In this document: positions 5,393 through 23,439 of the stretch, piece after piece
How the letters are laid out: each line of letters opens with the position of its first letter
How positions within the stretch are numbered: position 1 is the first letter of the stretch
Assembly: GCA_046309815.1 (NCBI GenBank)
Contig: JBKCOJ010000007.1
Coordinates: 26,179 to 90,178 of the forward strand
Source of the DNA: Pseudomonadota bacterium
GTDB lineage: Bacteria; Pseudomonadota; Alphaproteobacteria; Paracaedibacterales; CAITNM01
Length of the DNA stretch: 64,000 bases
Reading direction: 5' to 3'
Program-made: the position numbers and the translations under genes
The notes under the pieces: model-generated
Databases searched by the model: none
Told to the model about the DNA's origin: nothing
The model's input: only the letters and a program-made list of their open reading frames with translations

Positions 5393-5408
5393 GTTTAAAT
5401 ATTGAAAT

Positions 5409-5446: not shown

Positions 5447-5464
5447 AGGTGCTAATAAAGATAA

Positions 5465-6019
5465 CTACCCAAGCAACTTCTTTGCTGTTTCAATAACGCC
5501 CTCAAGAGTGCTTTCGATATGCAAGAATTGTTCGTGTTCTTTGCGTGCAAAATCTTCGTTGATAATGTGATGAAATAGGGAAACTAGGGGATCCCAGTAG
5601 CCATCGATATTAGCAAGAATGATAGGTTTTTGGTGGATATTCAGTTGGCGCCATGTAAAGATTTCAAAAAACTCGTCTAAGGTGCCAAAACCGCCTGGCA
5701 TGATGACAAAAGCATCAGCCTGTTGAGCCATTTGATGCTTGCGCGTGTGCATTGTATCAACGACAAATACCTGATCTAGACCGTCCTGCACGCCTTCACG
5801 ATTATCTAATTGGTGTGTGGTAATGCCAATAACGTGACCACCGTTTGCTATAACTGCGTTTGAAACGCGACCCATCAAACCAAAACGCCCTCCCCCATAC
5901 ACCATATTAAAGCCATTCGTTGCAATGAGTTTTCCAAAATCTTCCGCCGCCTTGTAATACTGAGGGTTAACACGTTCAGAGGCGCCACAATAGACGCAGA
6001 GATATTTGCCTTTAATCAT
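5465..6019 (-). CDS. LOG family protein (cytokinin riboside 5'-monophosphate phosphoribohydrolase-like, TIGR00730-type)
   Basis: The motifs VYGGGRFGLMG and PGGFGTLDEFFE are the LOG-family signatures. Confidence 0.85.
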   Translation of the reverse strand: MIKGKYLCVYCGASERVNPQYYKAAEDFGKLIATNGFNMVYGGGRFGLMGRVSNAVIANGGHVIGITTHQLDNREGVQDGLDQVFVVDTMHTRKHQMAQQADAFVIMPGGFGTLDEFFEIFTWRQLNIHQKPIILANIDGYWDPLVSLFHHIINEDFARKEHEQFLHIESTLEGVIETAKKLLG

Positions 6020-6133
6020 TCTTTATCCTTAATCTTTTCTAGTTCTTCCCACTAGACAAAGGTTTTTGTTCTGTCCCAGAATGACAAAGAGTACTTAAAA
6101 ATTTATTAAAAAGCTAATTTTCAAGGAACGCGC

Positions 6134-8245
6134 GTGTCAGCTGGTGAAATACTCTCAATCAAAATAAACACTTCGTTTGGAGATGGAGCTTTTGTTATTC
6201 AGCAGGCTGTTATTGAGGAAGCGCTATCAGAGCCATATCTTATTGATGTGTATGCATCCACGATGCTTTCTAGTTTTGATGGGGATGACCTGATTTATAC
6301 TAAAGCTGGTATTATTTTCGAAGTCTATGGCGGGAATGATCCCTCAGCTAAAAAGGAAGAGCGCTCTTACCAGGGTATAATCACCCATATGGAACACGTG
6401 CGAACGATTTTTGATGAAAAAAAACAAGTAACACATTTTTTTCATTTTCAAATACGGCCACTTTTTTGGATGTTAAAGCACAGCCGAGATCATCGAATTT
6501 TTCAAGAACAATCAGCGATTGATATTATTCAAACAATTTTTAGAGAAAATGGTTTGTCGGATTTTAAAATACAAGCATCTGGAGGCACGCAAGCACGAGA
6601 ATATTGCGTGCAGTATGGGGAAAGTCATTATGATTTCGTCTCACGATTACTAGAAGAAGAAGGCATTGGGTATTATTTTGTGCATGGTGATTCAGCGCAC
6701 ACGATGGTTCTGTTTGATAGTAATTCAAGTTTTGTGGGTATTGCGCAGGGAAGTTTGCCGTTTTTAAATATCGATACAGAGGGAGCTTTTGTGGATCATG
6801 TGGTTGCGTTTGGGAAAAAATCGCAAGTAGCTGCCAAGGCTTATAAAACTATTGATTACAACTACACGACACCTAATACGCAATTGTTAGGTAACAGCAC
6901 AGGAGCTGGATTTGGCGAGGAAATTTATGAATATCCCGGACTTTTTCAACAATCATCCGTTGGTGCCAAGCTTGCCGACCAGCGCATGGAAGAAATTGAA
7001 TGGTTTACAAAACGTGTGTATGGAAAATCATCCTGTGCAAGTTTAGCACCTGGAACAACGTTTACTCTGGCAGAACATCCTATTACACAGTACAACGCAG
7101 CTTATGCGGTTTCTTATGTAAAGCATGAACTTATTGCGCAGCCTACTGATGAGCACGATACCGATTCGTTTGCTTTAACATACACGAATTCGTTTGAAGG
7201 TTTTTTAAAAACAATTCCTTACAGGCCTTACCGAAAAACGCTGAAACCCCGAATTTATGGTTCACAAACAGCTTTTGTAACGGGAGCCGGCACAGAAGTT
7301 TATGGAGACGCGATGGCGCGCATCAAAGTTAAGTTTCATTGGGATTTGAAAAATCCAAACGATGAAACAAGTTCCCTGTGGGTGCGCGTAAGTCAATCAT
7401 TGAGTGGTGCAAGTTGGGGAGCACTTTACATGCCACGAATTGGTATGGAAGTTGTAGTATCTTTTATCGATGGTGATCCTGATAGACCATTGGTAACAGG
7501 ATGCGTGTACAATCAAGCCTTTATGCCACCCTACTCTCCTAAAGATTCACCTCATTATATGACCTTAAAAAGCAAGACTTTTGACGATGATACGGGAAGT
7601 AATGAATTGCGCTTTAGCGATGAAAAAGGCAAAGAAGAAATCTATTTGCACGGCCAATATGATATGAATACGGTTATTGAGCATAGCCGCACGGAAGATA
7701 TTAAAACGGGTGATGATTCTTTAACTCTTGATGCAGGTGACAAACTTATTCATCAAAAGGGTGATGGCACTATGTTTTTGACGCTTATCGATAGTGGAAA
7801 TCTCACCACTACTCTTAAAAAAGGAAATGTAGTCATTGACGTGAATGGTACTGTTCTTATTAAGGCCACCAAGGCAATTACGGTTACGACACCTGATAGC
7901 ATTACGATCAATGCCGGAAAAAATATCACGATGAAGGCTGGTGAGAATATTGTGATGAATGCTGGAAAAAGTATCCAAAAAAAGGCGGGACAAAATATTC
8001 AATCAACCGCTGGGAAAAGCATTCAAGAAAAAGCCAAAAAAATTCAAGAAAATGCGAGTGCCCAAATTCAACTGAAAACTGCCTCCATGCAGGCAAAAGC
8101 AGGAACATTGATTCAGCTAAAATCTGGAACAGCTTTTAAAGCAAATGCAGGTGCCATAATGGAGATTAAAAGTGGTGGCATGATTAAAGCGGAAGGCGCT
8201 GCTGTTGGTATGTTTAAGGGTGCTATTACGAAGCTTGGAGGCTAA
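6134..8245 (+). CDS. vgrG: type VI secretion system spike protein VgrG (TssI)
   Basis: 703 aa with a GTG start. It carries gp27/gp5-like motifs RIKVKFHWD and WVRVSQSLSGASWGALYMPRIGMEVVVSFIDGDPDRPLVTGCVYN. The C-terminus has beta-helix repeats AGKNITMKAGENIVMNAGKSIQKKAGQNIQ. Confidence 0.92.
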   Translation: MSAGEILSIKINTSFGDGAFVIQQAVIEEALSEPYLIDVYASTMLSSFDGDDLIYTKAGIIFEVYGGNDPSAKKEERSYQGIITHMEHVRTIFDEKKQVTHFFHFQIRPLFWMLKHSRDHRIFQEQSAIDIIQTIFRENGLSDFKIQASGGTQAREYCVQYGESHYDFVSRLLEEEGIGYYFVHGDSAHTMVLFDSNSSFVGIAQGSLPFLNIDTEGAFVDHVVAFGKKSQVAAKAYKTIDYNYTTPNTQLLGNSTGAGFGEEIYEYPGLFQQSSVGAKLADQRMEEIEWFTKRVYGKSSCASLAPGTTFTLAEHPITQYNAAYAVSYVKHELIAQPTDEHDTDSFALTYTNSFEGFLKTIPYRPYRKTLKPRIYGSQTAFVTGAGTEVYGDAMARIKVKFHWDLKNPNDETSSLWVRVSQSLSGASWGALYMPRIGMEVVVSFIDGDPDRPLVTGCVYNQAFMPPYSPKDSPHYMTLKSKTFDDDTGSNELRFSDEKGKEEIYLHGQYDMNTVIEHSRTEDIKTGDDSLTLDAGDKLIHQKGDGTMFLTLIDSGNLTTTLKKGNVVIDVNGTVLIKATKAITVTTPDSITINAGKNITMKAGENIVMNAGKSIQKKAGQNIQSTAGKSIQEKAKKIQENASAQIQLKTASMQAKAGTLIQLKSGTAFKANAGAIMEIKSGGMIKAEGAAVGMFKGAITKLGG

Positions 8246-8247
8246 TA

Positions 8248-9036
8248 ATGAGTATTGAAGCACAACAGCAAATAGAAGCAACAGAGGAGCCACACGCATC
8301 AAATTCAAATACCGAAGCTCCACCAGCTGAAAGTGCAGTTCCTAAAGAACAAGCTACGGATAAATCGCCTGTAAAAAAAAGTCCCATTAAAGAATTAGCA
8401 GAACAGGCAGCGAATCATAATGCCGGGGTGGCTCATGATGGTAAGCTAACCTATACACCCGGATATGAAAAAGATTTTCAAGAAAATGCAGAGATTCATG
8501 AAGAAGATGATGAGAGCGAAGAAGAAGAGGATGACGACGATGACCCCAAGGAAGATCCTCATGCCCCGGAACATGAAGTAAAAACACAAAAAATTGGATC
8601 AAAAACACTGCAAACGGAATTATCGAGAGGACTCAAGCAAGGCCTTACAAGCATCAAGACAAAAGATGGACATTACGAAATGCAGGCGCACTATGTAAAA
8701 GACAAGCTTGATGGATTAACGACGTATTACTTTGCTAATGGAAAAGTTGAGCGCGAAATTCATTTCAAGCATGGAAAAATGCATGGGTCGATGAAGGCTT
8801 TTCATGAGAATGGCCTACCCTCGATGGATGTGGAGTATGAAGATGGACTGATGCATGGCACCACCATCGTTTATGATGATTTTGGGCAAAAACAGGTAGA
8901 GTCGCATTACCAAAAAGGCAAATTGCATGGCGATACGATTGTATTTTCAAATGGAAAACCGTATCTGAAGAAGACATACCACGAAGGTAAAGAAACGCAC
9001 CAGGAATACGACGCCAGTGCAGCACATAGTTGTTAA
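8248..9036 (+). CDS. MORN-variant (YwqK-like) repeat protein with polyacidic N-terminal region
   Basis: It starts 2 nt after the vgrG stop. An acidic tract EEDDESEEEEDDDDDPKED is followed by about 23-aa repeats: YYFANGKVEREIHFKHGKMHGSMKAFHENGLPSMDVEYEDGLMHGTTIVYDDFGQKQVESHYQKGKLHG. Confidence 0.7.
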   Translation: MSIEAQQQIEATEEPHASNSNTEAPPAESAVPKEQATDKSPVKKSPIKELAEQAANHNAGVAHDGKLTYTPGYEKDFQENAEIHEEDDESEEEEDDDDDPKEDPHAPEHEVKTQKIGSKTLQTELSRGLKQGLTSIKTKDGHYEMQAHYVKDKLDGLTTYYFANGKVEREIHFKHGKMHGSMKAFHENGLPSMDVEYEDGLMHGTTIVYDDFGQKQVESHYQKGKLHGDTIVFSNGKPYLKKTYHEGKETHQEYDASAAHSC

Positions 9037-9084
9037 GGCGTGATTTGTTACTTATAATAAAACAAAAATAGTTGAGAAACCCCA

Positions 9085-9930
9085 ATGGCACTAAATTCCC
9101 TTATGGACTTATTAAAAATTAAGCAAGAAAAACGTGAAAAATTTAGGCATGAAGCAAAAAGCTTAACAAAATTTATCGTTGGTTTTTTGATTTTTAGCAC
9201 CTTGTTTTTTAAGCCGTTTAATATTCCCACCGGTTCAATGATCCCGAATTTATTGATTGGGGATTTTTTGGTAGTGAATAAATTTGCTTATGGATACACG
9301 CGCTACAGCTTGCCATTTGGAGCAGATGTAAACTGGTTCGAGGGACGAGTAATGCCTGAAAATCCGAAGATGGGTGACATTGGTGTTTTTCATAATCCTA
9401 AAGATGCAGAACCCTTTTCCATTCTTGGAATCAAACTTTGGGATTCAGCAAAAGATTACGTGAAGCGTATTATTGGATTACCGGGCGATCGAATCCAGAT
9501 GAAAAAAGGACGCTTATGGATTAATGGTAAAGAATGCCCCATTCAGCGTATTGAAGATTTTCCTTTGGAGCATAATGGAAAAACTATTATGGTGCCTCGC
9601 TACTTAGAAACGCTGCCAAATGGAGTACAGCATACGTTTATAAAATATGTCCCGTTTGGTGAAGCGAGAGCATTTTCGCATGACCCTGAGCATAGCACGG
9701 ATGATACGCCGGAGTATGTGGTACCGGAAGGACATTTCATGATTATTGGTGATAATCGTGATGGATCTCTTGATAGCCGTTATATGAATGATAAGGTAGC
9801 ATTTATTTCTTATGACCATTTAATGGGTAAAGTTGCTTTTGTGTTCTTTTCAACATCCGCTAAATGGTATGAAGTTTGGAAGTGGTTTACAAATGTCCGA
9901 TTAGAGCGGATTATGACGATCCCTAAGTAA
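9085..9930 (+). CDS. lepB: signal peptidase I
   Basis: S26 boxes TGSMIPNL, VKRIIGLPGDRI and GDNRDGSLDSRY. Confidence 0.9.
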   Translation: MALNSLMDLLKIKQEKREKFRHEAKSLTKFIVGFLIFSTLFFKPFNIPTGSMIPNLLIGDFLVVNKFAYGYTRYSLPFGADVNWFEGRVMPENPKMGDIGVFHNPKDAEPFSILGIKLWDSAKDYVKRIIGLPGDRIQMKKGRLWINGKECPIQRIEDFPLEHNGKTIMVPRYLETLPNGVQHTFIKYVPFGEARAFSHDPEHSTDDTPEYVVPEGHFMIIGDNRDGSLDSRYMNDKVAFISYDHLMGKVAFVFFSTSAKWYEVWKWFTNVRLERIMTIPK

Positions 9931-9958
9931 AAACATCAATAATATGAGTAATAAAAAA

Positions 9959-9989
9959 CACCTGCGCTGTTATATCGCAGGTGTTTTTT
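9959..9989. terminator. bidirectional rho-independent terminator between lepB and the patatin gene
   Basis: Hairpin CACCTGCG-ctgttatat-CGCAGGTG flanked by an A-run on the left and a T-run on the right. Confidence 0.6.
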
Positions 9990-10006
9990 CGTTTTAAGCT
10001 TTTAAA

Positions 10007-11107
10007 CTATTTTTTCTTTTTACCGTCAAGCATTTTTAAAGAGCCAGCATGGCCTTTGTGCATATCCCAGTCTTTGCCGGTAAAGTGTTCACGAATTGGC
10101 GCCGTTGTTTTCTTACCGATGCTATCATAATTTTGTTTAATCCAAGCATCAGCGGCATCACGTCCCTTTTGGAAAAGGTGATCAAAGAAGTCCATTTCTG
10201 TGTTTAATTTACTTCCCCAACCAAGTTCTTGGAAACATGCTTCGTCTTCAATTAAATGCATGTATACGCGCTTCATGCGACCTTCAGGAATAACACCTTC
10301 ATCTTGCAATTGACCAATCATATGAATTGCACGCATTTCACGAACAACAGACGCGTTGTTTGTGATTTCATTTAAGCGATCACCAATCTCGCGTGCACTT
10401 GTCGGTAATTTGTTTCGAATAGTTGGGTTTAACTGAATTAAAATAATATCAGATGTCTCACAATCATAAATCAGAGGGAACATCACAGGGTTTCCAATGA
10501 AACCACCATCCCAATAATATTCGCCATTTACCAGTACAGCGCCATGAATAGTGGGCAAACAAGCTGTTGCAAGTAGACACTCTATTTTCAATTCTTCTGT
10601 TTTAAACACCGTTAATTTTCCAGTGAATACGTGTGTAGCACAAAGGAAAACTTTACATTCCTTTTGTTTGCGTAACAATTCAAAGTCAAAAGTTTTTGCA
10701 ATCACGTCACGTAATGGATCTGTTTTCATAGGATTAAGCTCATATGGAGAATACATACGGCTTAGGTATTCAAACATCAAGAAACCTGGAGAGTTATACA
10801 TTGTCCAGTTATTCATGTATTTATCAATTGGACCACGATTGTTAAGAGAGCTATTTTTGCCACTTTCACAAATACGTTCCCAAAATAATCTTAGCGTAGC
10901 ACGCGCTTCTTTATTGCCACCCTTAGCCAAACCTTGTGCTGCAGCTACTGCGTTCATACCGCCCGCTGAAGTTCCTGTAAGGCCTTCAATTTCAAAACGA
11001 CCATCTTCTAATAACTTATCAAGCACACCCCAGGTAAAAGCACCATGAGAACCACCGCCTTGACATGCAATAGCCACCTTTTTTTTCTCTTTAGCTTTAG
11101 TTGTCAT
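10007..11107 (-). CDS. patatin-like phospholipase
   Basis: Oxyanion box CQGGGSHGAF, nucleophile elbow GTSAGG and catalytic DGG (WDGGFIGNP). Confidence 0.85.
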   Translation of the reverse strand: MTTKAKEKKKVAIACQGGGSHGAFTWGVLDKLLEDGRFEIEGLTGTSAGGMNAVAAAQGLAKGGNKEARATLRLFWERICESGKNSSLNNRGPIDKYMNNWTMYNSPGFLMFEYLSRMYSPYELNPMKTDPLRDVIAKTFDFELLRKQKECKVFLCATHVFTGKLTVFKTEELKIECLLATACLPTIHGAVLVNGEYYWDGGFIGNPVMFPLIYDCETSDIILIQLNPTIRNKLPTSAREIGDRLNEITNNASVVREMRAIHMIGQLQDEGVIPEGRMKRVYMHLIEDEACFQELGWGSKLNTEMDFFDHLFQKGRDAADAWIKQNYDSIGKKTTAPIREHFTGKDWDMHKGHAGSLKMLDGKKKK

Positions 11108-11196
11108 AGATTACCTTCCACAAATGTAAAAAATTCTTTATTAATTAAGTAATTCTAAACAAAAATACTTAAAAAAGAGTTAAAAACACTCAGCAT

Positions 11197-12222
11197 ATGA
11201 TCATCTTAGCCATCGAAACAAGTTGTGATGAAACCTCAATATCTATCCTTCAAGATTCTGATATTGATAAGCGCATTCTAAGTTTAGTAACGCGCTCACA
11301 AGTAAGCGTACACCAAGATTATGGAGGAGTTGTACCTGAACTCGCCGCACGAGCTCATCTAAGCAATATTGAACCCATCATGGAGCAAGCTCTTGCTCAA
11401 GCAAAAATAGAACTTAAAGATATTGATGCTATTGCAGTCACAGGCGGCCCTGGATTAATTGGGGGGGTACTAGTAGGTGTGACCTTAGCAAAGGCTCTGC
11501 ATGTTTCCCTGAATAAACCTTTGTACTGCATCAATCACCTTGAGGGGCATGCATTAACAGCCCGATTGAGTCATGATGTCGCCTACCCTTACCTGTTATT
11601 GTTAACATCGGGTGGGCATTGCATGTTTATGGAAGTGCTAGGTTTTCGTCAGTATGTTCTTTTGGGGCAAACTCTGGATGATGCAGCTGGCGAGTGTTTT
11701 GATAAGATTGCCAAGCTTTTAGACTTTGATTTTCCGGGAGGTCCAACCTTAGAAAAAAAGGCTAAATTGGGTGATCCGACACGATTTATCTTTCCAAAAC
11801 CTTTGCAGCATGAACCTGTACCTAATTTTTCTTTTTCAGGTCTGAAAACTGCTGTTAAGCAGACCATTGAAAAAAGCACGCTTGATGAACAGACTGTTTG
11901 TGACATTGCCGCGAGCTTTCAATATACGGTTGGAGAAATATTTAAAGAGCGTTTATCAAAAGCCTTGAAGTGCAGCCAACATAAGGTAGAGCGTTTAGTC
12001 ATGGCTGGTGGTGTGGCTGCAAATCGATATTTACGAGAACAACTTCAGCATGTATGTGCGAATCATGGCATTGAAGCGATTTTTCCACCGATGAATTTGT
12101 GTGTTGATAATGCAGCGATGATTGGATGGGTTGGTATTGAGGCAATACAGCATGGCGTGCTACCATCAGAGAGTGATTTTCAACCAAGACCGAGATGGCC
12201 ACTAGAACAGCTTCATTTATAG
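11197..12222 (+). CDS. tsaD: tRNA N6-adenosine threonylcarbamoyltransferase
   Basis: ILAIETSCDETSISI, INHLEGHAL and GGVAAN motifs of the Kae1/TsaD family. Confidence 0.9.
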   Translation: MIILAIETSCDETSISILQDSDIDKRILSLVTRSQVSVHQDYGGVVPELAARAHLSNIEPIMEQALAQAKIELKDIDAIAVTGGPGLIGGVLVGVTLAKALHVSLNKPLYCINHLEGHALTARLSHDVAYPYLLLLTSGGHCMFMEVLGFRQYVLLGQTLDDAAGECFDKIAKLLDFDFPGGPTLEKKAKLGDPTRFIFPKPLQHEPVPNFSFSGLKTAVKQTIEKSTLDEQTVCDIAASFQYTVGEIFKERLSKALKCSQHKVERLVMAGGVAANRYLREQLQHVCANHGIEAIFPPMNLCVDNAAMIGWVGIEAIQHGVLPSESDFQPRPRWPLEQLHL

Positions 12223-13376
12223 ATTTTCGTCTTCTGAGCCTCTGCTTAATGAATATTCTAGCTGGAATGGAGATGGATATCTTCACGCCCAGTTTCCCTG
12301 AAATCATGGACGCGTTTTCTGTAAATATTGAACAAGTGCAGCTAACGCTTAGTGTGAATTTCACGGCCTATGCATTAGCAACTCTGTGGGTGGGGCCGCT
12401 AGCTGAACGATTTAGCAGTAAGAACATTGCGATTTTATCGTTGGTTCTTTTTTCAATTGGCAGTATTTTTTGCTGCGTTGCTACTTCTTTCTCTGTTTTA
12501 CTAGTGGGCCGCTTATTACAAGGCTTGGGCATGAGCGGTCCCAATGCTTTAAGTTATGCGATTGTTTATGAGTTTTATCCAAAGCACCGCACCAAATACA
12601 TTAGCATTTTAAGTGGATTGAATGCCCTGATGATGGGTGCAGCTCCGGTTTTTGGTAGTTATCTTAATCTTTGGCTTGGGTGGAGATCGAATTTTTTGAG
12701 CTTGCTTATTTTATCGCTTGTGGCTTTAGCTCTTGCTTTTAAATGTTTACCAAAACAAAAAAGTCATCAACACACCGTTCCTGAACTTGGGTTAAAGACA
12801 TATCTGCCCCTTTTTAAATCAAGGCGATTCAACTATCCGGCAGCGTTGGTTGTAAGTTCTGCTGTTTGTTATTTTGTGTTTGTTGGTATTGCCCCTATTT
12901 TTTATCGCGAAGATCTGCATGTTTCATTAGAAGCATTTGGTTTATATCAGGGAGCCTTAGCCTCTTCTTATGGACTTATGTGCTTATTTGGTGGAGCACT
13001 TTGTAAGCGATTTGGAGAAGATACATGTTTTAAAACAAGCCTAGGCCTATATTGTCTTTTTGGCATATTAGCGGGAATTTATGGTTTCTTTTTGCCAACC
13101 AATCCTTTAGTCTTGACCGCCATTTTAATAGGCTGGAGTTTTTCATGCGCTTTGCCGGTAAATATCAGTTACACTCGCGCCTTGGGAGCTGTCAAAGGCG
13201 CTTCGGCTAGAGCTTCAGGAATATTAATAACATTTCGATTAGTGTTTAGCGCAATTGGGTTACAAATTATTGCTCACTTTTATAATCACACCTATTTCCC
13301 ACTAGCCGTGATGATTGGGATTGAAGGTTGCCTTGCCCTGTTTCTTGGCAGGCGCATCATAAAAAGACGCTATTAA
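12195..13376 (+). CDS. MFS transporter (Bcr/CflA-like drug-resistance type)
   Basis: About 12 hydrophobic segments. The start overlaps the tsaD end by 28 nt, and alternative starts lie slightly downstream. Confidence 0.78.
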   Translation: MATRTASFIDFRLLSLCLMNILAGMEMDIFTPSFPEIMDAFSVNIEQVQLTLSVNFTAYALATLWVGPLAERFSSKNIAILSLVLFSIGSIFCCVATSFSVLLVGRLLQGLGMSGPNALSYAIVYEFYPKHRTKYISILSGLNALMMGAAPVFGSYLNLWLGWRSNFLSLLILSLVALALAFKCLPKQKSHQHTVPELGLKTYLPLFKSRRFNYPAALVVSSAVCYFVFVGIAPIFYREDLHVSLEAFGLYQGALASSYGLMCLFGGALCKRFGEDTCFKTSLGLYCLFGILAGIYGFFLPTNPLVLTAILIGWSFSCALPVNISYTRALGAVKGASARASGILITFRLVFSAIGLQIIAHFYNHTYFPLAVMIGIEGCLALFLGRRIIKRRY

Positions 13377-13454
13377 ATTTACTAATAACCAAGACTTAAC
13401 GATATATTAATCCCTCGATAATATTCTTTTATTATTCTTAAGAGTAATAAAAAT

Positions 13455-15557
13455 ATGATCAAGAGCTGTTTAAAGACCTCCTTATGGATATGTCTTAATT
13501 TATTCAGTATGCTTCATTCCAGTCAGAGCTTCTCATCGTCTGAAGAAGAACTATCTTGGGTGCGAACCAAAACTAGTGAGCTTTCAGCATTAGGATACAC
13601 GCAGGCAGCAGATACTTTAGCGCGACAGATTACCCAACAGCTTATTAACCCGGGCGTTGATAAAGTATTATGCGTTGATGAAATCGATCAGCATTTAAAA
13701 TTAGAACTGTATTACGCGTTCAATACGAAATGGGGGTCAGGAAGAACCAAAGATCATCGCATTGTTTATGATTTTTTGAGTAGGCTTGATAAGGCAGCGC
13801 CAAAAAATCGAGCACAAAGAGAATTTTTAAGCGTACTAACGATTCTTTCACTCGCATCTCAGGAGTATTTTTGGAATGAAAAATCAACCGTAATTGATTT
13901 GAGAAATAGAGCAAAAAGAGAGCTACGTTACGGACTTTTTAAAAAAGCAGGACATAAACTTAACGTAGCAAATTTAATATACTTAGAAGAACCTGACATC
14001 GAACGCCTTACGACCGCATGGATTAGTGAGGAATTACTTGGAAAATTGCAGGCTTTAATGGGGAATTTTAGAGACAAAAATTTAGGTGTAACCTTTTCAG
14101 CCATTTTGGAAGATTTAACAACAAAACTAAGTAAGATAGGAATAGCAAAACTTCCCGTTAAGCTGGATGCTAACACCCGCGAAAAATTTAGCCTGGGTGA
14201 ACAAATGGATTTCAGACCAGCATCTTCAGCTGGTGATGGGATGTGTGGGGAAAACAGTCTTTTCATTTCAACCGATGGTGCTTGTGGTGGCATTTCTGAA
14301 GGCAATGCGCGCTATAAAATAGAACGAGCTATTTTAGATCAAGCAGTGGATCCTATTGCGCATCGTCTATATCTACTAATAAGTCCATACATTAATAATT
14401 CCGAGAAATTTTTAGAGATCATTCAATCTCACCTTGCATCTACAGTTGACCCGAATGAAGTTGCTATTAGAGAAGCTATTGTTGGCTACATGCAACAAGA
14501 GATGGATTTAAACACCAGAAGGCAAGAAGGTGCAAGTCAGCAATTACGAGACCTTATCGCACGTGTCACTAAGCCCTTATCAATAATTTTGAATAGGTTT
14601 AAAGATGAGCTTGCCGAGTCAGAAAAATTAAGTGCCTGGACAGGCAATGGAGCAGATGCTTTTAAAGATGCGTCCTGTCGCGATTTTAATAGTCTGATTG
14701 AAGAAGTGTTAAATAGTGAAAGCATAAACCCGGGATTAGTCTCAGTCATAGATCCAATTCGTGCAGAGATTACAAGAATTATGAGCCAACCTGGCATTCA
14801 ACGTCCTAAAAAAATGGCTGAGCGAAATAAGCTGGTGGGAGCTGCGCTTCGCTCATACCTTGATGCTGATATTTTGCCAGGCACGATGAGCGATAAATCT
14901 TTTGATATTGATAAACTTTGTGAGCCAAGAAATGAACGGTATTCTTTCTTAACAAGTTTATGCGTTGCTGCGTGTCGATTGGTTAGGCCTGTTTTAGCCA
15001 CTGCTGCTTCTACGGAAACTTTAATTGAGAGTGAAATTGCTGCAATCAGGGATGAAAAGGATGAGGTGATTCGAGAAATTGAACATACCCTTTCGATGGA
15101 AAGATTAAAGATTTTAGGGCTTTTTAGCACCCTGCCTGCGCAATTTTCCCCTGACATATTAAAAGAAGATATGCATAAAAAAGCCTTAAGTCCTGGAGAA
15201 CTAGCTGGGTGGTTACCTTGCGATGCTATTTATACGCAGCTTTGGGCAATGGTAAACAACTTAAATATTTTTGTTTTTTCAAGTGGGGAAAGCCATGGAA
15301 GATCAGGTCTTGATTTAATGATCCGCCTTAAAGATGATCCTTACACTCAAATAGCAACGCACTATTCACATGGCGTCAGCGGTAAACATTTAGCAACGGT
15401 GATTTTAACCTCACCAACGGCTAAAAATGTTTATTTAAGTAAGTCACCCGCGCATTATGACAAGCTTCTTTCGCCAAATGACTTGGCTGCCATGGCGCGT
15501 GAAGCGCGTCATCTTGAGTGGATGAAAGATCCACAACGATATGCGTTATATCCGTAA
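13455..15557 (+). CDS. secreted OTU-like cysteine protease candidate, paralog 1 (putative deubiquitinase-like effector)
   Basis: 700 aa with signal peptide MIKSCLKTSLWICLNLFSMLHSS. Cys box AGDGMCGENSLFI (Cys264, nt 14244-14246), loop GELAGWLPCDAIYTQLWAMVNNLNIFVF, and His box PAHYDKLL (His667, nt 15453-15455). Confidence 0.55.
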   Translation: MIKSCLKTSLWICLNLFSMLHSSQSFSSSEEELSWVRTKTSELSALGYTQAADTLARQITQQLINPGVDKVLCVDEIDQHLKLELYYAFNTKWGSGRTKDHRIVYDFLSRLDKAAPKNRAQREFLSVLTILSLASQEYFWNEKSTVIDLRNRAKRELRYGLFKKAGHKLNVANLIYLEEPDIERLTTAWISEELLGKLQALMGNFRDKNLGVTFSAILEDLTTKLSKIGIAKLPVKLDANTREKFSLGEQMDFRPASSAGDGMCGENSLFISTDGACGGISEGNARYKIERAILDQAVDPIAHRLYLLISPYINNSEKFLEIIQSHLASTVDPNEVAIREAIVGYMQQEMDLNTRRQEGASQQLRDLIARVTKPLSIILNRFKDELAESEKLSAWTGNGADAFKDASCRDFNSLIEEVLNSESINPGLVSVIDPIRAEITRIMSQPGIQRPKKMAERNKLVGAALRSYLDADILPGTMSDKSFDIDKLCEPRNERYSFLTSLCVAACRLVRPVLATAASTETLIESEIAAIRDEKDEVIREIEHTLSMERLKILGLFSTLPAQFSPDILKEDMHKKALSPGELAGWLPCDAIYTQLWAMVNNLNIFVFSSGESHGRSGLDLMIRLKDDPYTQIATHYSHGVSGKHLATVILTSPTAKNVYLSKSPAHYDKLLSPNDLAAMAREARHLEWMKDPQRYALYP

Positions 15558-15632
15558 AACGGCGTCATATTTTAACTCTTTGTTAATACTTCCTCTTTGA
15601 TACTTAGGTAAAGATTTTACCAGAGGGGATTT

Positions 15633-18143
15633 ATGGTATTTTGGGGATTTTTCTTACTTATCTATACATTTTTTTCATCTTTTGCATTTCCTGTAGAAAC
15701 TGAGGATCAACCTGGCGTAGAGCATATCATTTTTCGGCCAGAAATTCAGCATTTAATAAAAGAGCATATGCGATTTTGCACCCTTGGATATACAGAAGAA
15801 GCAGATACTTTAGCGCGAAAAAATACTCAAGACATTGGAACTTTATTTGCAGATATGGAACTTACAAAAGATGAGTTTAATGAATTGGTGGGAATTCATT
15901 TACGAACAGAGTTTTATTATGCGCTTAATTCAGTGTGGAATTGTGGAGCAACAAGGAATCCACGTCATATCTATGATTTTCTAAGTCAATTTGATAAAGG
16001 ATTTGCTAACACTCCAAAACGTAAAGAACATCTCACCACATTTACCATTCTTTCCCTAGCGGCTCATGAGTATTTTTGGAATGAACGATCCTCAACAGAA
16101 GATTTAAAAAAACATGTAGCACGTGAATTGCGTTATGGACTGTTTAGGGAATCTAGTCATGTATTAGACATGACATCATTGCTTTATTTGGATGAAGGAA
16201 ATATATCTCGTATTTCAAATGCTTTAATTGATGAATTATTTTTGCAGGCTCTATTTTTCTTCACGGAGAGTTATAGAGAGCAAACACTTGGGAGAACTTA
16301 TGCTCAGATATACAGACATTTGAACCAAGTAGTAGAAGAACAACTTAAATCTCCTCATCGACTTTCATTAGATATACTTCCAGAAAATTTACGCGACCAG
16401 GCTGGTTTATACCTTAAGTTACCCCTTTGCCTTGCTGATTCTTTTCCTGATGGTATGTGTGGACAGCACAGCCTTTTCATTCCAACAGATGGTCCTTTAG
16501 CCGCTTCGGAGAGTACTGGAATCGCTGAAGGAAACGGCAGATACAAAATGCTTCGTGCAATTTTAGACAATACTGCGGATGTTGATGCACGACGAATTTA
16601 TCTCATGATTAGTCGTCATATGGATGGTGTGGGTTTTTCTTCTTTAATAGAGAAAATGGTTGCGGAACTGGGAGAAAGAGATGTGGAGCAAGCGAGTGCT
16701 TTAAGAGAAAGAATGATACAGTACAGTCAATTTAAAAGTAATAAACAAGCAGAAAATGAAGAACATATTAATCAATCAAAACGAGAGATGCTAACTGCTG
16801 TGATAGCATTACCTGCTTTAGAAGACGCCTTGAAGGATTTTCATGCAAAAATTAGTGACCCAGAGCAGTTAAAAGTATTGATCCTAGATAAAAACTTTCG
16901 CGATATTATTGATGCAATCTTAAGCTTGAGAAAAGCAAGACCAACAATAGATGAGCGTTTGGCAGGGATAGACGTCGAGATTGAAAGGCTAAGCACTGAA
17001 ATAGCTGCCGAAAAAACAGCCGCTGTTGAGAAAGTAAGAGCAGAGCGAACGCGATTACAAGAAGAAATTAAAAAATTAAGAACCGAATCTCAAGAGTATC
17101 AACAACAGCATCAAGCCGAAGTAAATGAGCTTGCTGTATTGGTATCTCGGCGTCAGCAGCTTCTTAATTTGATACAAAGAAAGCAAGTTCAAGGAAACTC
17201 TGAACAACTAAAGCAAAATGTTGAAAAGCAATTTAAGGATTTTGAGGAAAAATACCCAGAATTTGCCCAATTTATGAATGAAAAACAAATAGCCATTGCT
17301 AAAGTACAACAAGAATATAAAGAACTTAGGGAAGATACTTCCCTTTATGAGCAAAAGTTAGCTGAGAAATATACGTTGATTTGCGAAACGATAAAAGAGT
17401 TTTTAAACCCAAGCATGTTACCTGGGAAAAGCACTGATGCATTTTTATTTGATGAACTTTGCGAGAGTGGATACTCAATATTTATTACCGAGGTTTGCCA
17501 GCCCGTTGCAGAACTTTTACAGCAACCAGAAACGGCAAGATCATGCGGAAAACTTTGGGATGATTTTCAAGATCGTAAGGATATTTTTAATCATCAGGTA
17601 GAGCAGGATTTAATAGCCCAAAGATTGGAAATTGTTAGTTCTTTAACTGAATTTCCTGAAGAATTATCGCCTGCATCATTGGGGGCAGAAATGCAAGAAT
17701 TGGCTTTACGTGGAGGAGAATTGGGAGGATGGTTGCCTTGTGATTCAGCGTATGTGCAATTATGGGCAGTTTTACACAATTTAAATGTTTTTGTTATATC
17801 TGATCAGGAACATTTCGGTAATCAGTTGATTAGACCAAAGCTTAATTTAATGTCGCGTTTTGCCGATCAGCCATATGCACAACAGACAATTTTGTATCCT
17901 CCAGAAAAAACAGGCTTTCATCTTGCAATGGTTATTTTAACGTCAGAACGAGCAAAAAGTGTTGTTTTGCGTAGGCAAAATAATCATTATGAAAAGCTAT
18001 ATGATCCAACTGATCATATCGCCACTTCTATGCAGCAGCGGCATCTTAAGTGGGTCGACCTGGGAGAAAAAATGTATGAGTCTTATCCGAAGAAAGCTGT
18101 AGCTATAACGAACACACAAAGCAACCCAGCGGAAGAGGCTTAA
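15633..18143 (+). CDS. secreted OTU-like cysteine protease candidate, paralog 2, with coiled-coil insertion
   Basis: 836 aa with signal peptide MVFWGFFLLIYTFFSSFAFP. Cys box FPDGMCGQHSLFI (Cys276, nt 16458-16460), GELGGWLPCDSAYVQLWAVLHNLNVFVI, and His box NNHYEKLY (His785). Colinear with 13455..15557. A heptad-rich segment spans about nt 16950-17360. Confidence 0.55.
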   Translation: MVFWGFFLLIYTFFSSFAFPVETEDQPGVEHIIFRPEIQHLIKEHMRFCTLGYTEEADTLARKNTQDIGTLFADMELTKDEFNELVGIHLRTEFYYALNSVWNCGATRNPRHIYDFLSQFDKGFANTPKRKEHLTTFTILSLAAHEYFWNERSSTEDLKKHVARELRYGLFRESSHVLDMTSLLYLDEGNISRISNALIDELFLQALFFFTESYREQTLGRTYAQIYRHLNQVVEEQLKSPHRLSLDILPENLRDQAGLYLKLPLCLADSFPDGMCGQHSLFIPTDGPLAASESTGIAEGNGRYKMLRAILDNTADVDARRIYLMISRHMDGVGFSSLIEKMVAELGERDVEQASALRERMIQYSQFKSNKQAENEEHINQSKREMLTAVIALPALEDALKDFHAKISDPEQLKVLILDKNFRDIIDAILSLRKARPTIDERLAGIDVEIERLSTEIAAEKTAAVEKVRAERTRLQEEIKKLRTESQEYQQQHQAEVNELAVLVSRRQQLLNLIQRKQVQGNSEQLKQNVEKQFKDFEEKYPEFAQFMNEKQIAIAKVQQEYKELREDTSLYEQKLAEKYTLICETIKEFLNPSMLPGKSTDAFLFDELCESGYSIFITEVCQPVAELLQQPETARSCGKLWDDFQDRKDIFNHQVEQDLIAQRLEIVSSLTEFPEELSPASLGAEMQELALRGGELGGWLPCDSAYVQLWAVLHNLNVFVISDQEHFGNQLIRPKLNLMSRFADQPYAQQTILYPPEKTGFHLAMVILTSERAKSVVLRRQNNHYEKLYDPTDHIATSMQQRHLKWVDLGEKMYESYPKKAVAITNTQSNPAEEA

Positions 18144-18144
18144 T

Positions 18145-19293
18145 TTAGGATTCCTCAGCCATCAGTTCATGCAGTTGTTGTTCGGTGATGCCTAAAATGT
18201 CACAAATATCTTCGGTTTTCATTTCTTTATTTTGCATGCGTGTAATTGCTGCGCGTTTTGTTCTTTTTTCACCAACTTTTTCGCCTTCTTCACGTTCCAC
18301 CGCCAGAGTTGCCGCATAAAGATCTCGATTCGCTAAATTCTCTCTGTATTCACCCGTCACTCTCGGACTCCATTGCTGTAAATCTAAACGGTTTAAGGCG
18401 TTGTATATGGCAACAGGCATTATTCCTGTACCTTCGTTATACCATTCTGCTACTTTTGCTGATGTGTACTCCTGCGCATGATGTAAGACACTCACCCACC
18501 AATCCGCCATCGTAAAATCTGCCTGTGGCGGAAACAACGATTTTGTTCTTTCCGCACGTGGTAACTCCACTTGGATCATCTGCAAATAATCAATTTGCTG
18601 TCCCGATTTATCCGTTAAAACATAGTGCTTAATAAATTGCTCTGTTGGTAATGGGTGTTCTTTTACTCTATCCACTAAAGTATCTGGCACCTCTGCCTTA
18701 AGACCACGAATGCGATTCGTGTCATAATCTAAAATTTGTAAGGCAATTACTGGTTTTAGGTTAATATACCAATTCTCAGCACTGAGTTGCCTTTCTGATA
18801 ATTGGCGCGCATAAATTCCACACGCATAAAATAAAGCTCGCTCATCAAACATCACATGACGCTGCGCCTGCATTTCGATAATGTAATGAACCCCGCTTTG
18901 CGATGTCACGTGCAAATCCATGAAGGTCTGTTTCTCTCCCGGGTGCCTAAGCGCTGGGATAGCAACAGGGGCTTCCTCAACTTCCACCACTGGGTCGCCC
19001 CTGAAGGGAGGAATAAAGCAATTTAAGAAAGAAATCACAATTGAAGGGTCACTTCCCATCGATAAAGATAACATATGCTTAAAAGCGGTATCGGTGGTAG
19101 CAATCGCGTAGTGATAGTCGCCAAGCTGATGCAACAATGCTTCTTTGACAACTTCATCGGAAGATTGTTCGATGGTGCGTTTGCGTGATAGTCCTTCTGG
19201 ATCTTTTGATTCCATCGCAAAGGAAGAACCAAGAGCAACACAAATGCCAAAAATAAAAAACTTCTGTAAAAATTGTTGGTTTTTTTTAACCAT
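18145..19293 (-). CDS. Rpn-family / PD-(D/E)XK nuclease family putative transposase
   Basis: FKHMLS...FMDLHVTSQSGVHYIIEMQAQ (D...E.Q nuclease core) with a C-terminal TEDICDILGITEQQLHELM helix-turn-helix-like tail. I prefer the ATG at 19293, which has a GAGGAG SD, over the ORF-track start at 19332. Confidence 0.68.
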   Translation of the reverse strand: MVKKNQQFLQKFFIFGICVALGSSFAMESKDPEGLSRKRTIEQSSDEVVKEALLHQLGDYHYAIATTDTAFKHMLSLSMGSDPSIVISFLNCFIPPFRGDPVVEVEEAPVAIPALRHPGEKQTFMDLHVTSQSGVHYIIEMQAQRHVMFDERALFYACGIYARQLSERQLSAENWYINLKPVIALQILDYDTNRIRGLKAEVPDTLVDRVKEHPLPTEQFIKHYVLTDKSGQQIDYLQMIQVELPRAERTKSLFPPQADFTMADWWVSVLHHAQEYTSAKVAEWYNEGTGIMPVAIYNALNRLDLQQWSPRVTGEYRENLANRDLYAATLAVEREEGEKVGEKRTKRAAITRMQNKEMKTEDICDILGITEQQLHELMAEES

Positions 19294-19453
19294 CGCGTTG
19301 TTCTCCTCGCCAGCTCTCCCCTGTCTTCCCATTACTACATTTCTCTTGTTCTTTCAAGAAAAAATGAGAAAAGCTAGGCATCTACATACTTTAGCTATTG
19401 TGCAGAAAAGCTATTCGACTTACCATTAAATGAGGTATTAAAAATCCAAATGC

Positions 19454-21262
19454 ATGGCAAAAGTCGACGACTCATTAGTTCGCTATTACCAAGAAGAGCT
19501 TGATTACTTACGTTCAAGCGGAAAAGAGTTTGCCAAACAATATCCAAAAATTGCGCGACGCCTCGAATTAACGGATGGAGAGTCCCCAGATCCACAGGTG
19601 GAAAGGCTGCTTGAATCATTTGCTTTTCTAACGGGACGTTTGAGTAGAGCGATTGATGATCGATTTCCGCAAACAGCGCAGGCTTTATTGAGTGTTTTGT
19701 ATCCTCATCTGGTTAATCCTATTCCAGCGATGGCAATTGCAAAACTACATGTTGATCATAGTCAAATTCCAGCAGATAAAGGGTATTATCTTGAGAAAGG
19801 CACGAAGCTTTTAGCGCATTCAGTTGAGGATGTGCAGTGCCAATTTCAAACAGTTTATAACACCCATCTTTGGCCTTTAAATATTCAAAAAGTTGAGCTG
19901 GTAGCAAGAGATGCTTTCACTTTTGAACACTCACCTCAACATCATTGGCTTTTAAAAATGACGATTCATTCAAAAAATTCGCCAATAAAAGCGATGAATG
20001 TGGATAATTTATTAGTGCATATTTCGTGTAATTGGATAAAAGCAAATTTGTTTTATGAAGCGTTATTTAGTGAATGCGCTGGCAAACTGTATGTTGCAAC
20101 GGATGAAAAAATAACGGCTGTAGAAGCGTGTACGCTGGAGCCTGTTGGCTATAAGCGTGATGAATTACCCCTTCCTGTTCCTGATTATAGTTTGCATCAT
20201 TATGCGCTGTTTCAAGAGTACTTCCATTTCAGTGAAAAATTTTTATTCTTTCGTATTGCAGGATTGCAAAAAGCCATTGCAGCGCTGGCCCCGCAGCAGG
20301 AAATGCATCTTTTAATTCCTTTAAAAAATGCCATGGTTTTTCAGCAAAAAGGAATTGATGCATCGGTATTTTCGTTGAACTGCTTGCCAGTTGTGAACTT
20401 ATTTGAGCGGCCTTCTGATCCGATACGTATTCATCATCGCCATTTACGTTATCGTTTAATCCCTGACATACGCCGAGAACGCACGAGCGAAGTGTACAGC
20501 GTTCAGCATGTGGAAGGCATTGAAGAAAAGACGCAAAAAGTCATTGAGTATAAGCCGTATTATGGTCTTGAAACGCGTGATAATGAAGGGTTCTTTTGGA
20601 CTGCTCAACGTGTGCCAGCGGGTCTTAGAGGACTGCCAGGAACTGATGTGTATTTATCCTTTATCAACCGAAATTTTAATCCTATTAAGGCGAAAGACGT
20701 TGTTGTAACGGCAAAAATTTTGTGCACCAATCGGTATCTGGCAGATCAATTAGCTGCTGGCTCGCTGCTGCAACCAGAGGGCAAAGCGCCGGTTTTAAAG
20801 ATTACGCTATTGAATAAGCCCACTTCGCAAAATTACACGATGCTGGATGGAGAGAGTTTGTGGATGTTGATATCGCAGCTTTCGACCAATTATTTAGGCG
20901 TGCTTAATGTTAATCAAGGCTTAAATTCTTTGAAAGAATTTTTGTATCTTTTTGCGAGTCGTTACCCCGATAAACCTGCGTCTTCTATTGAAGATTTGAA
21001 AAATATGACCATTAGCCAGATAACGAGGCGCTTTGGTGCGGATGCGTGGCGTGGTTTTGTGCAAGGCTATAAGGTGCAGCTTGAGATGGAAAAAACGAAT
21101 CATGAAGGCGGCAGTAATTTGATTTTGGGAACGATTTTGAATGCATATTTTAGCTCAACAGTCAGTTGGAATAGCTTTGTCGAGTGCAGTTTGAATGATG
21201 GCAAAAATAATGGAGAATGGATGCAATGGCAGCCCCAGCCCGGCGTGCAAACGCAGTTGTAA
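19454..21262 (+). CDS. tssF: type VI secretion system baseplate subunit TssF
   Basis: The N-terminus YYQEELDYLRSSGKEFAKQYPKIARRLEL...DPQVERLLESFAFLTGRL is the TssF (ImpG/VasA) signature. Confidence 0.9.
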   Translation: MAKVDDSLVRYYQEELDYLRSSGKEFAKQYPKIARRLELTDGESPDPQVERLLESFAFLTGRLSRAIDDRFPQTAQALLSVLYPHLVNPIPAMAIAKLHVDHSQIPADKGYYLEKGTKLLAHSVEDVQCQFQTVYNTHLWPLNIQKVELVARDAFTFEHSPQHHWLLKMTIHSKNSPIKAMNVDNLLVHISCNWIKANLFYEALFSECAGKLYVATDEKITAVEACTLEPVGYKRDELPLPVPDYSLHHYALFQEYFHFSEKFLFFRIAGLQKAIAALAPQQEMHLLIPLKNAMVFQQKGIDASVFSLNCLPVVNLFERPSDPIRIHHRHLRYRLIPDIRRERTSEVYSVQHVEGIEEKTQKVIEYKPYYGLETRDNEGFFWTAQRVPAGLRGLPGTDVYLSFINRNFNPIKAKDVVVTAKILCTNRYLADQLAAGSLLQPEGKAPVLKITLLNKPTSQNYTMLDGESLWMLISQLSTNYLGVLNVNQGLNSLKEFLYLFASRYPDKPASSIEDLKNMTISQITRRFGADAWRGFVQGYKVQLEMEKTNHEGGSNLILGTILNAYFSSTVSWNSFVECSLNDGKNNGEWMQWQPQPGVQTQL

Positions 21263-22230
21263 AGCAATCTCTTCCCGAACAGGTTTTAGAAACGCCTGAA
21301 GCGTTTGATCTGGATCAGCTGATTTATATTATCGAATCGTTGCGCACAAATGTGGCGCCGCTTGGCGAAGCTACCAATCCTCAAAAAGAGGCCGTGCGGC
21401 TTCGAAGCCCTATTACCATGCACCAAGAAGGTACTGAAGTTAATCGTTTGGAGGTGAAAAATACACTTTCAAAAGTGCCCGAGATTTATATTAATACGCT
21501 GAGCCTTGCGGGTGTAAATGGCCCGTTACCGACGCCTTATACGGAAAAGCTGCTTGAGCAAATGAAGCAAAAGGATTTTGCGGGCGCGCATTTTTTGGAT
21601 ATTTTTCATCACCGTTTGGCATCGATGTGGCATCGCTTGCGCAAGCGTACCTACCCTCACCTTTTCAAAAGTCCGCCAGCGCAAACACCGATTGGGAAGC
21701 TGCAAGAAAATTTGAGTGGTTTTGCGCAGCAAGGAGACGTTGATCATACGTTGTTTTTCGATCATTTTTGGAAGCGATCGAGATCGCTTGCAGGCCTGTT
21801 ACAAATGGTGAAAACATTTTTTGGCGTGGAAGCATCGATTAGCCCATTTGAGGGGGCATGGCGAAAGGTGGATGCGGCGGAGGGAAGCCGGATTGGTAAG
21901 CGAGGACAGTTTCAGGTTTTGGGCAAAGATGCCATTTTGGGTCTGCGGTGCTGGGATCAGGCGGCAGGATTTACGATTGAGGTGGCTCCTCTTGATTGGG
22001 AGGCATTGCAGGGATTTTTACCGTTTAAAAGCAATGCGCTGGGTGGAGGAAATTTTTATAAGCTGAAACAGCTGGTGGTGAGTTATATGGGAACATTGCC
22101 GAGGGTGTTTTTAAAGCTTTCGCTGAAAGAGGGTGAAAATCGTGGGGCGAGTTTAGACCACAACCATGGGCTTGGCTGGAACACATGGCTGAGTGGTGCG
22201 ACGGCGGAGAGTGTGCGGGTAAGGGTTTAA
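21217..22230 (+). CDS. tssG: type VI secretion system baseplate subunit TssG
   Basis: GVNGPLPTPYTEKLLEQ...FLDIFHHRLASMWHR matches the TssG (ImpH/VasB) core. It overlaps the tssF 3' end. Confidence 0.85.
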   Translation: MDAMAAPARRANAVVKQSLPEQVLETPEAFDLDQLIYIIESLRTNVAPLGEATNPQKEAVRLRSPITMHQEGTEVNRLEVKNTLSKVPEIYINTLSLAGVNGPLPTPYTEKLLEQMKQKDFAGAHFLDIFHHRLASMWHRLRKRTYPHLFKSPPAQTPIGKLQENLSGFAQQGDVDHTLFFDHFWKRSRSLAGLLQMVKTFFGVEASISPFEGAWRKVDAAEGSRIGKRGQFQVLGKDAILGLRCWDQAAGFTIEVAPLDWEALQGFLPFKSNALGGGNFYKLKQLVVSYMGTLPRVFLKLSLKEGENRGASLDHNHGLGWNTWLSGATAESVRVRV

Positions 22231-22241
22231 GAGAGGCTTAT

Positions 22242-23439
22242 TTAATATTCTCTTGAAAAATCAACTAATGAGCCATCTGCTTTAAACACGTACCTCAAAT
22301 CCCCAGAACTAGCCGTGCTATAAATAGATTTTTTTGTTGTAAATATTGACCATTTTGGGTTTTTATCTATAGCCATGAACTCAAAAATAGGTGAAAGCTG
22401 TCCTTTTGCATATTCAATATCTTTAAAATCAGGAATACCAATTGTTACTGAATGTAAATCCTCAAGAAGAAAAACATCATTTTCGGTATCTCTTAAGCAA
22501 TCAATTAAAATAAACTCCTGAAAGAGTGCTAAATCAGGATGCCCGTTATATCTATAACCTGCGCTAATTGCGACATGGTGAGGGCCCTTCTTACTTAACC
22601 ATAATCCATCATTTGAACCATCTTTATCTTTTGCTCCGTGATGACTAAAGACAGACAATTGAACATTTTGAAGAGGTTGTTGATGAGGAGCTGCCGTTAA
22701 ATTTTTCCTGCAATCTATCAAATACCTCCTTGTAGCGATAGCTGACGCATCCCCCATAATTAAAATGTTTTTGCCATTTAAAGAAAGTCTTACGATAGCA
22801 CTATTTGTGTTTTCATCATTCTCATAGGAGGTGCCTACACCCGCGTTAGCACATAAAATTGATAAAAATGTATGAGGATTATGAAGGCTTTCCGCATCTA
22901 AAAACCCATCTTTTAATAAAAGATCTATCGCATAGTGGGTAATAAAATGGACAATTCTTGGGGGTAACCGATTTAAGACTTCTTCGTATAGTTCTTTGCC
23001 CTCTTCTTTCCACAAATAACTGTGTTGATTATCGCCTAATATAAATTGATTAGTGCGTAAAAATAATGTTGTATTGAGATTAAATAATTTAGCAAGGTGA
23101 TGTTAAAAGATTAAGATGATCTTTATCACTGTGAGAAATAATAACCGTGATTTTTCCTGCATAATCTGGTAAATCTGCATGCACTTCACCTATTCCGAGA
23201 GCACAAGCAATACGGTTAATAATTTCATTAGGAGTGTCTGAAGATGTACCAAAATCTACAACTACATAGGATCCATTCTTTTTATTTTTTAGAAGGGTAT
23301 TACCTCCTTGCCCCACATTTTCAGCAATCACTTCGAAATTAGCACCATTGTTATAGCAATGATGAAAGTCAGCAGCGTCAAAACCTGATACCGCAAAAAT
23401 AACCTGACAAAAAGCAATAATAACTAAAAAGATAAGCAT
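22242..23439 (-). pseudogene. ComEC/Rec2-like metallo-beta-lactamase-fold hydrolase with signal peptide, split into two ORFs by a frameshift
   Basis: ORF 23089..23439 carries VGQGGNTLL...VVVDFG...IISHSDKDHLNLL. The ORF 22242..23015 frame is open up to 23102 and carries NSAIVRLSLNGKNILIMGDAS, SVFSHHGAKD, ISAGYRYNGHPD and STASSGDLRYVF. Together these follow the colinear ComEC C-terminal MBL motif order. The two frames overlap only in 23089-23102. Confidence 0.6.

Follow-up and report, generated by a model that had tools for sequence, protein, structure and literature searches.

We analysed a 64-kb stretch of DNA (64,000 nt; contig JBKCOJ010000007.1, positions 26,179 to 90,178; hereafter the window) from a metagenome-assembled genome (MAG) of an alphaproteobacterium, which carries three genes of a type VI secretion system (T6SS). 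These are the spike gene vgrG (6134-8245) and, about 11 kb further on, the genes of two baseplate wedge subunits, tssF (19454-21262) and tssG (21217-22230), all on the forward strand. An earlier note on this DNA had proposed that the apparatus is either scattered across the genome or decaying. The evidence set out here points to intact genes of a system whose parts are dispersed.

The VgrG protein (703 aa) scores 494 bits against TIGR03361 (cut-off 186) and consists of the Phage_GPD, Phage_base_V and Gp5_trimer_C domains (PF05954, PF04717, PF22178), which correspond to a gp27-like hub, an OB fold and a gp5-like needle; it has no C-terminal effector extension. Its NCBI entries are MCE2716301.1 and MFN6414779.1. 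The start of a gene for a MORN_2-repeat protein with an acidic N-terminal region (8248-9036, forward strand; PF07661, E=2.4e-10) lies 3 nt past the vgrG stop, and the two genes probably form one transcript. The same gene directly follows vgrG in the related loci L012, L013, L015 and L024 (L numbers denote loci fetched for comparison). We call this partner MORN/YwqK-like, taking proteins of the YwqK family to be MORN_2-repeat proteins.

TssF (602 aa) matches PF05947 at 543 bits (cut-off 25) over residues 5-598 of 602, and TIGR03359 at 525.6 bits (cut-off 260.3) over its full length. TssG (337 aa), whose gene overlaps tssF by 46 nt, likewise gives full-length matches, to TIGR03347 (190.6 bits, cut-off 143.3) and to PF06996 (203 bits, cut-off 24.6). 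The pair is constant, with tssG following tssF in every Holosporales-type locus that reaches beyond tssF. As the earlier note had described, no tssE stands upstream of tssF; a gene that we call p836 and a divergent Rpn-nuclease gene are found there instead. The gene calls and distances given in that note also hold, the gap between the Rpn gene and tssF being 121 nt rather than 120, and a convergent open reading frame (ORF; 22242-23015, reverse strand) starting 11 nt past tssG.

The remaining core components are absent from this neighbourhood. A Pfam scan of all ORFs of at least 100 aa in the window recovered no Hcp, TssB/C, TssE, TssK/L/M/A, ClpV or PAAR, and hidden Markov models (HMMs) built from outgroup TssL, TssM, TssA, TssB, TssE and Hcp had no match in it; the claim that hcp, tssBC, tssK/L/M, clpV and PAAR are missing from these 64 kb is thus upheld. 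The flanks (8.7 kb on the left, 6 kb on the right) hold no further T6SS genes, which brings the region covered to about 79 kb. The contiguous arrangement of a canonical T6SS-i, a single locus of about 13 core genes in which tssE comes immediately before tssF, is not what is found here. Mis-assembly can be excluded, because an identical TssF with the same neighbours occurs on 21 independent contigs from different samples and assemblers.

The organism appears to be a putative Finniella-like alphaproteobacterium of the Holosporales, a placement that follows from the labels carried by the nearest TssF homologues and loci. TssF has about 25 close homologues at 55-80% identity, and the next tier, at 38-46%, comprises Candidatus (Ca.) Paracaedibacter symbiosus, Ca. 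Odyssella thessalonicensis, Ca. Finniella inopinata and Holosporales MAGs. When species-representative genomes were scanned, the loci most similar to the window (69-79%) bore the names Ca. Finniella inopinata, Ca. Odyssella sp. or Alphaproteobacteria MAG. The nearest genomes, whose DnaB is 87-93% identical, carry the labels Ca. Finniella inopinata, Ca. Odyssella sp., Paracaedibacteraceae or Holosporales. The Holosporales live as obligate endosymbionts in protists, and the organism is probably an endosymbiont of a protist. Proteins of the window are deposited under two accession series, MCE2716301-329 and MFN6414779-807.

Membership of an endosymbiont lineage prone to gene loss, together with the lack of tssE, hcp and tssBC nearby and the insertion of an Rpn nuclease gene beside tssF, might suggest that the T6SS is being lost and that vgrG and tssFG are on their way to becoming pseudogenes. 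The genes themselves argue otherwise. The earlier note had named inactivating lesions in tssF or tssG as a deciding observation, but both ORFs are of full length and the models are matched end to end. We also compared non-synonymous and synonymous divergence (dN and dS) between window genes and those of nine relatives, synonymous sites being saturated in these comparisons (proportion of synonymous differences, pS, 0.7-0.8). The dN values of tssF (0.13-0.22), tssG (0.16-0.28) and vgrG (0.13-0.17) are about those of the housekeeping gene tsaD (0.11-0.17) and below those of pepP (0.22-0.31), and the dN/dS ratio (omega) of the T6SS genes is about 0.09 or less. Since full-length model matches are joined by housekeeping-like dN with saturated dS, the genes are not decaying: vgrG and tssFG are intact and under purifying selection. 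The tssFG pair is moreover kept in about 40 genomes, down to 38% identity, and intact sheath, Hcp-like and TssE genes are present in the same MAG. Of the two options first proposed, scattering is thus borne out by the second contig, by the roughly 40 genomes with tssFG only and by the literature, whereas the full-length matches and the dN values speak against decay, which we regard as the least probable account of the locus.

The sheath genes were found on another contig. Canonical TssC queries miss this lineage among their top hits, and metagenome contigs were scanned with an AT-biased DNA pattern for three TssC motifs (WGN..CPTE..AAFF). The scan returned 63 loci, including low-GC sheath loci flanked by housekeeping genes and lacking tssF/G, some of which cluster look-ups tied to Ca. 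Paracaedimonas acanthamoebae and to Holosporales MAGs; a scan of viral_contigs with a TssC alignment gave no relatives. Loci L096 and L140 match the tetranucleotide composition of the window (r = 0.95). Searching with the L096 sheath protein, followed by a cluster look-up, led to a member deposited as MCE2716721.1 and MFN6415415.1, in the same two accession series as the window proteins and 420 and 636 numbers away from them.

The sheath locus (L155-L160) encodes a TssB-TssC fusion of 643 aa with VipA, VipB and VipB_2 domains (L155:5535-7466). In the segment that follows (L155:7478-9000), the first ORF is an Hcp-like gene (187 aa, with a sub-threshold Pfam Hcp match), and after it come tssE (GPW_gp25; 174 aa) and a coiled-coil ORF of 115 aa. 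The locus has housekeeping genes on its flanks (MscS, an M16 peptidase, an RND pump, truA and bipA), and it too lacks tssF/G. Its GC content is 0.38, its tetranucleotide correlation with the window is 0.96-0.98, and sequencing run SRR30451266 contains both the sheath contig and a tssFG contig. On these sequence grounds, we assign a separate tssB-tssC-hcp-tssE locus to the window MAG. The absence of tssE upstream of tssF is then explained, because tssE travels with the sheath genes. Elsewhere, the same order of an Hcp-like gene (about 190 aa) and tssE is seen at L096:2345-3877 and L133:2320-3418, and a conserved coiled-coil ORF of 112-115 aa follows tssE in the window's clade.

The fusion of the two sheath subunits is not peculiar to this MAG. 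Both the window species and many Holosporales encode TssB and TssC as a single ORF, 632-712 aa long (L155-L160, L096:405-2333, L127:4141-6039, L134:1281-3353), and all of the best 120 database matches to the L096 sheath protein are such fusions (120/120; 640-760 aa). Many of these matches come from MAGs named 'Holosporaceae bacterium', and one from a gammaproteobacterium, Bacterioplanes sanyensis. At the junction, the tail of TssB passes through a short linker into the N-terminal helix of TssC. The two genes are separate in Ca. Bodocaedibacter vickermanii and at L151 and L110. The PGAP annotation of the fusion in the window MAG covers the TssC part only (495 aa), and the literature searched by phrase yielded no description of natural TssB-TssC fusions.

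A dispersed T6SS has already been published for the Bodocaedibacteraceae, Paracaedibacteraceae and Caedimonadaceae (Midha et al. 2021, PMC8163844), so the novelty that the earlier note implied does not hold; the finding is real but ordinary in this lineage. In the complete genome of Ca. B. vickermanii, whose gene positions are given in Supplementary Table 3 of that study, the T6SS genes listed are tssFG (CPBP_00125-126), a solitary tssE (CPBP_00258), ywqK with vgrG (CPBP_00352-355), a tssJ-like gene with tssK, L, M and A (CPBP_00933-937), tssB and tssC with an Hcp-like gene (CPBP_00985-987) and a DUF4280 gene (CPBP_01201), and ClpV is not among them (PMC8163844). Low-level RNA-seq reads were reported for almost all of these genes, the DUF4280 gene having none (PMC8163844). 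According to a 2025 review, nearly every sequenced genome of the suborder, Holospora apart, has kept the T6SS, which the review describes as probably non-standard (PMC11909080). The window shows two of the published modules, tssF-tssG and vgrG with YwqK/MORN.

The layout across the lineage was checked by comparing Pfam-verified T6SS proteins of Azospirillum cavernae by tblastn with all fetched loci. About 40 Holosporales-type loci, whose TssF is 38-79% identical to that of the window, carry tssF-tssG alone, the 10 kb to each side being free of tssL, M, A, B, C, hcp and tssE. Ca. P. symbiosus (L011) and Ca. O. thessalonicensis (L039) belong to this set, and profile HMMs agree that these loci lack other T6SS genes. 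In contrast, of the 39 outgroup loci (from Azospirillum, Rhodospirillaceae, Marivibrio, Acidobacteria, Thermoanaerobaculia and Nitrospirales; TssF identity 35-38%), about 34 have tssE immediately before tssF, the other five being short or contig-end fragments. Where the outgroup flank is long enough, hcp-tssC-tssB-tssA-tssM-tssL are also upstream, and vgrG often comes after tssG. The two groups separate cleanly, and the break-up of the T6SS is therefore an old, fixed trait of this lineage.

Proteobacteria commonly carry orphan vgrG islands alongside a main T6SS cluster. By analogy, the window copies could be accessory duplicates of a complete canonical cluster located elsewhere, with its own tssF, tssG and vgrG; our evidence spans the window, its flanks and the sheath contig rather than the whole genome. 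However, the sheath locus of the same MAG lacks tssF/G, and the TssF search gave one sequence lineage per species-level group. The complete Ca. B. vickermanii genome likewise has a single tssF and a single tssG, and no contiguous cluster (PMC8163844). We consider redundancy of the window copies very unlikely.

Closer to the window, gene order is kept in 13 loci of related species, which answers the earlier call for a check of vgrG and tssFG synteny in relatives. These species have in common a 25-kb block that runs vgrG, MORN, S26, patatin (reverse strand), tsaD, MFS, p836-family gene, tssF, tssG, a variable region, ksgA, pepP, dksA, M23 and dnaB. In 29 Holosporales-type loci that are more distant, tssFG stands without any of these neighbours. 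The tssFG pair is the conserved unit, and its 11-kb spacing to vgrG is a genus-level feature. A linkage of patatin, MFS or MORN genes to tssFG across the Holosporales was considered and rejected, the 29 distant loci giving no qualifying match apart from one weak MFS match.

Before the Rpn gene and tssF lie two forward-strand paralogues, p700 (13455-15557; 700 aa, with a signal-peptide-like N-terminus and no Pfam family) and p836 (15633-18143; 836 aa), a member of a clade-specific family. They are 33-38% identical, and both went unmentioned in the first description of the locus. A p836-family gene is directly upstream of tssF in 13/13 close-relative loci, the Rpn gene intervening in the window. 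The p836/p700 family has only 23 homologues, all within the window's clade, and is marked by a signal-peptide-like N-terminal segment and long coiled coils; its DG-CG box is invariant and its HYDK motif nearly so. The proteins evolve fast (omega 0.2-0.3), and the AlphaFold2 model, although confident (pLDDT 82.7), found no fold match in the PDB. As judged from its sequence, p836 may be a secreted protein, and one could guess that p836 and p700 are secreted effectors of the cysteine-protease type.

The constancy of this arrangement within the genus-level clade, together with the description of the system as non-standard (PMC11909080) and the lack of a reported ClpV, would also fit a co-option of tssF-tssG, along with the upstream p836-family gene, into a role other than that of a canonical T6SS baseplate. 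Yet the linkage to p836 is absent from the 29 more distant Holosporales-type loci, which still keep tssFG, and all the other baseplate, sheath and membrane genes persist in relatives, a working T6SS being the simplest account. We give co-option little credence.

The region between p836 and tssF differs from that of the relatives. The Rpn / PD-(D/E)XK_2 nuclease gene (18145-19332, reverse strand; PF12784, TIGR01784) is found there in the window species only and is absent from 13/13 relatives, in which the p836-family gene ends about 70 nt before tssF; it is a single copy within the window. Between it and tssF, 27-59 nt upstream of the tssF start, lies a conserved promoter-like element, CTATTGT-N17-CTTACCATT (19395-19427, forward strand), which can be read as a weak promoter, TTGTnn-17-TACCAT. 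The CTTACCATT box is kept in 12/12 aligned species and CTATTGT in 8/12, and the element, which may act as a promoter, persists despite the insertion of the Rpn gene. CTTACCATT occurs once in the window and is not found upstream of vgrG or tssBC, and a k-mer search for a motif common to the regions upstream of vgrG, tssF and tssBC returned only AT-rich chance matches. RNAalifold detected no conserved RNA structure in the tssF leader, and Rfam and tRNA scans of the window found nothing. A scan for sigma-70 promoters and terminators over 5300-23200 was uninformative, with fewer sites than in shuffled sequence.

Taken together, these results lead us to favour, with a probability of roughly 85%, a single functional T6SS with its core genes distributed over several sites of the chromosome, as they are in relatives. 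Under this model, the first module would supply the VgrG spike, with the MORN/YwqK-like partner as a likely adaptor, immunity or cargo protein, and the second would supply the TssF-TssG baseplate wedge from its own promoter-like leader. The third, on the other contig of the MAG, would contribute the fused TssB-TssC sheath, the divergent Hcp-like tube protein and TssE. A fourth, known from relatives and comprising a tssJ-like gene with tssK, L, M and A, would provide the membrane complex and the rest of the baseplate, and it presumably exists in the window MAG as well. TssF and TssG would join TssE, from the sheath locus, and TssK, encoded elsewhere, in the wedge, and fused TssBC would polymerise around the divergent Hcp. 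The parts would then assemble into a working injector, and expression of the loci would presumably be co-ordinated.

Several points weigh against this model. The T6SS of this organism is known from genes alone, and the assignment of the sheath locus to the same genome derives from accession series, composition and co-occurrence in a sample, not from a closed genome. The Hcp-like protein stays below the Pfam cut-off (17.3 vs 23.5 bits, E = 0.006). tssK/L/M/A, tssJ, ClpV and PAAR/DUF4280 were not located for the window MAG, for which there was no lineage-specific seed and which was not scanned whole. Finally, the insertion of the Rpn gene between p836 and tssF could alter tssFG expression.

The genes between the two T6SS modules, assigned by Pfam, encode an S26 signal peptidase (9085-9930, forward strand), a patatin-like lipase (10007-11107, reverse strand), TsaD (11197-12222, forward strand) and an MFS transporter (12195-13376, forward strand). 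This block (9085-13376), made up largely of housekeeping genes, is in the same order in up to 9/13 close-relative loci, at 64-92% identity. The patatin-like lipase gene adjoining tsaD is 81-92% identical across the clade and is tandemly duplicated in one relative (L007:200-2491; 81% and 86% identity to the window copy). After tssG, a variable region on the reverse strand (22242-28057) contains ORFs without assignment, two Sel1-repeat proteins and a HicB-like antitoxin (Pfam), the last with no obvious HicA partner in the region. The interval from tssG to ksgA is hypervariable among close relatives, and a long Sel1 array occupies it in L012. The other window genes are housekeeping genes, namely cydA, ksgA, pepP, dksA, dnaB, tyrS, ftsQ, ddl, pntA and hemF. 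cydA, for cytochrome bd oxidase subunit I, lies at 1-1150 on the reverse strand and runs off the left window edge, hence its absence from the list of ORFs. The many short overlapping forward-strand ORFs at 300-1000 are the antisense shadow of cydA, and what looked like pseudogene debris at 407-1300 was likewise rejected as such, being the antisense strand of that gene.

The immediate stakes are small, as our study adds one uncultured Finniella-like genome to a published pattern. The dispersed layout is nonetheless a natural experiment in how the stoichiometry of a machine of about 13 components is kept without operon linkage, and the private promoter-like element of tssFG, the placement of tssE with the sheath genes and the fused TssB-TssC offer starting points for that question. 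Tentatively, the peculiarities of the Holosporales T6SS may extend from gene order to mechanics, given its single-chain TssB-TssC, highly divergent Hcp, lack of a reported ClpV and, in the window's clade, the fast-evolving p836-type protein with its signal peptide and invariant Cys box locked directly upstream of tssF, although we think this rather improbable. If it does, the fusion would fix a 1:1 ratio of the two sheath subunits, one partial answer to the stoichiometry question, and might accompany ClpV-independent recycling of the sheath.

Orphan vgrG islands of Vibrio and Pseudomonas hold vgrG with adaptor, effector and immunity genes away from the main cluster. The window resembles them in that vgrG stands apart from the structural genes and is followed by a small co-oriented partner gene. 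However, those islands coexist with a complete main cluster, whereas none was seen here, and the partner is MORN/YwqK-like without a recognisable toxin domain. By TssF similarity, the nearest contiguous cluster is the canonical T6SS-i of Azospirillum, Rhodospirillaceae and Acidobacteria (tssL-M-A-B-C-hcp-E-F-G, often followed by vgrG). It shares homologous TssF (35-38%), TssG, VgrG, TssB/C (about 63-69%) and TssE with the window lineage, but it is contiguous, with tssE directly upstream of tssF, whereas the window lineage has a broken-up system with no tssE at that position. The closest likeness is to the dispersed T6SS of other Holosporales, with which the window lineage has in common an isolated tssF-tssG pair, vgrG with YwqK/MORN, a separate sheath and Hcp-like locus, housekeeping neighbours and a divergent Hcp. 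Within that shared plan, TssB-TssC is one 643-aa protein here and tssE belongs to the sheath locus, whereas in Ca. B. vickermanii the sheath proteins are separate and tssE stands alone. The window further differs from the Holosporales pattern in that its MORN gene lies downstream of vgrG, tssF is preceded by a p836 gene specific to the clade, and a mere 11 kb separates vgrG from tssFG, within one block conserved at the level of the genus.

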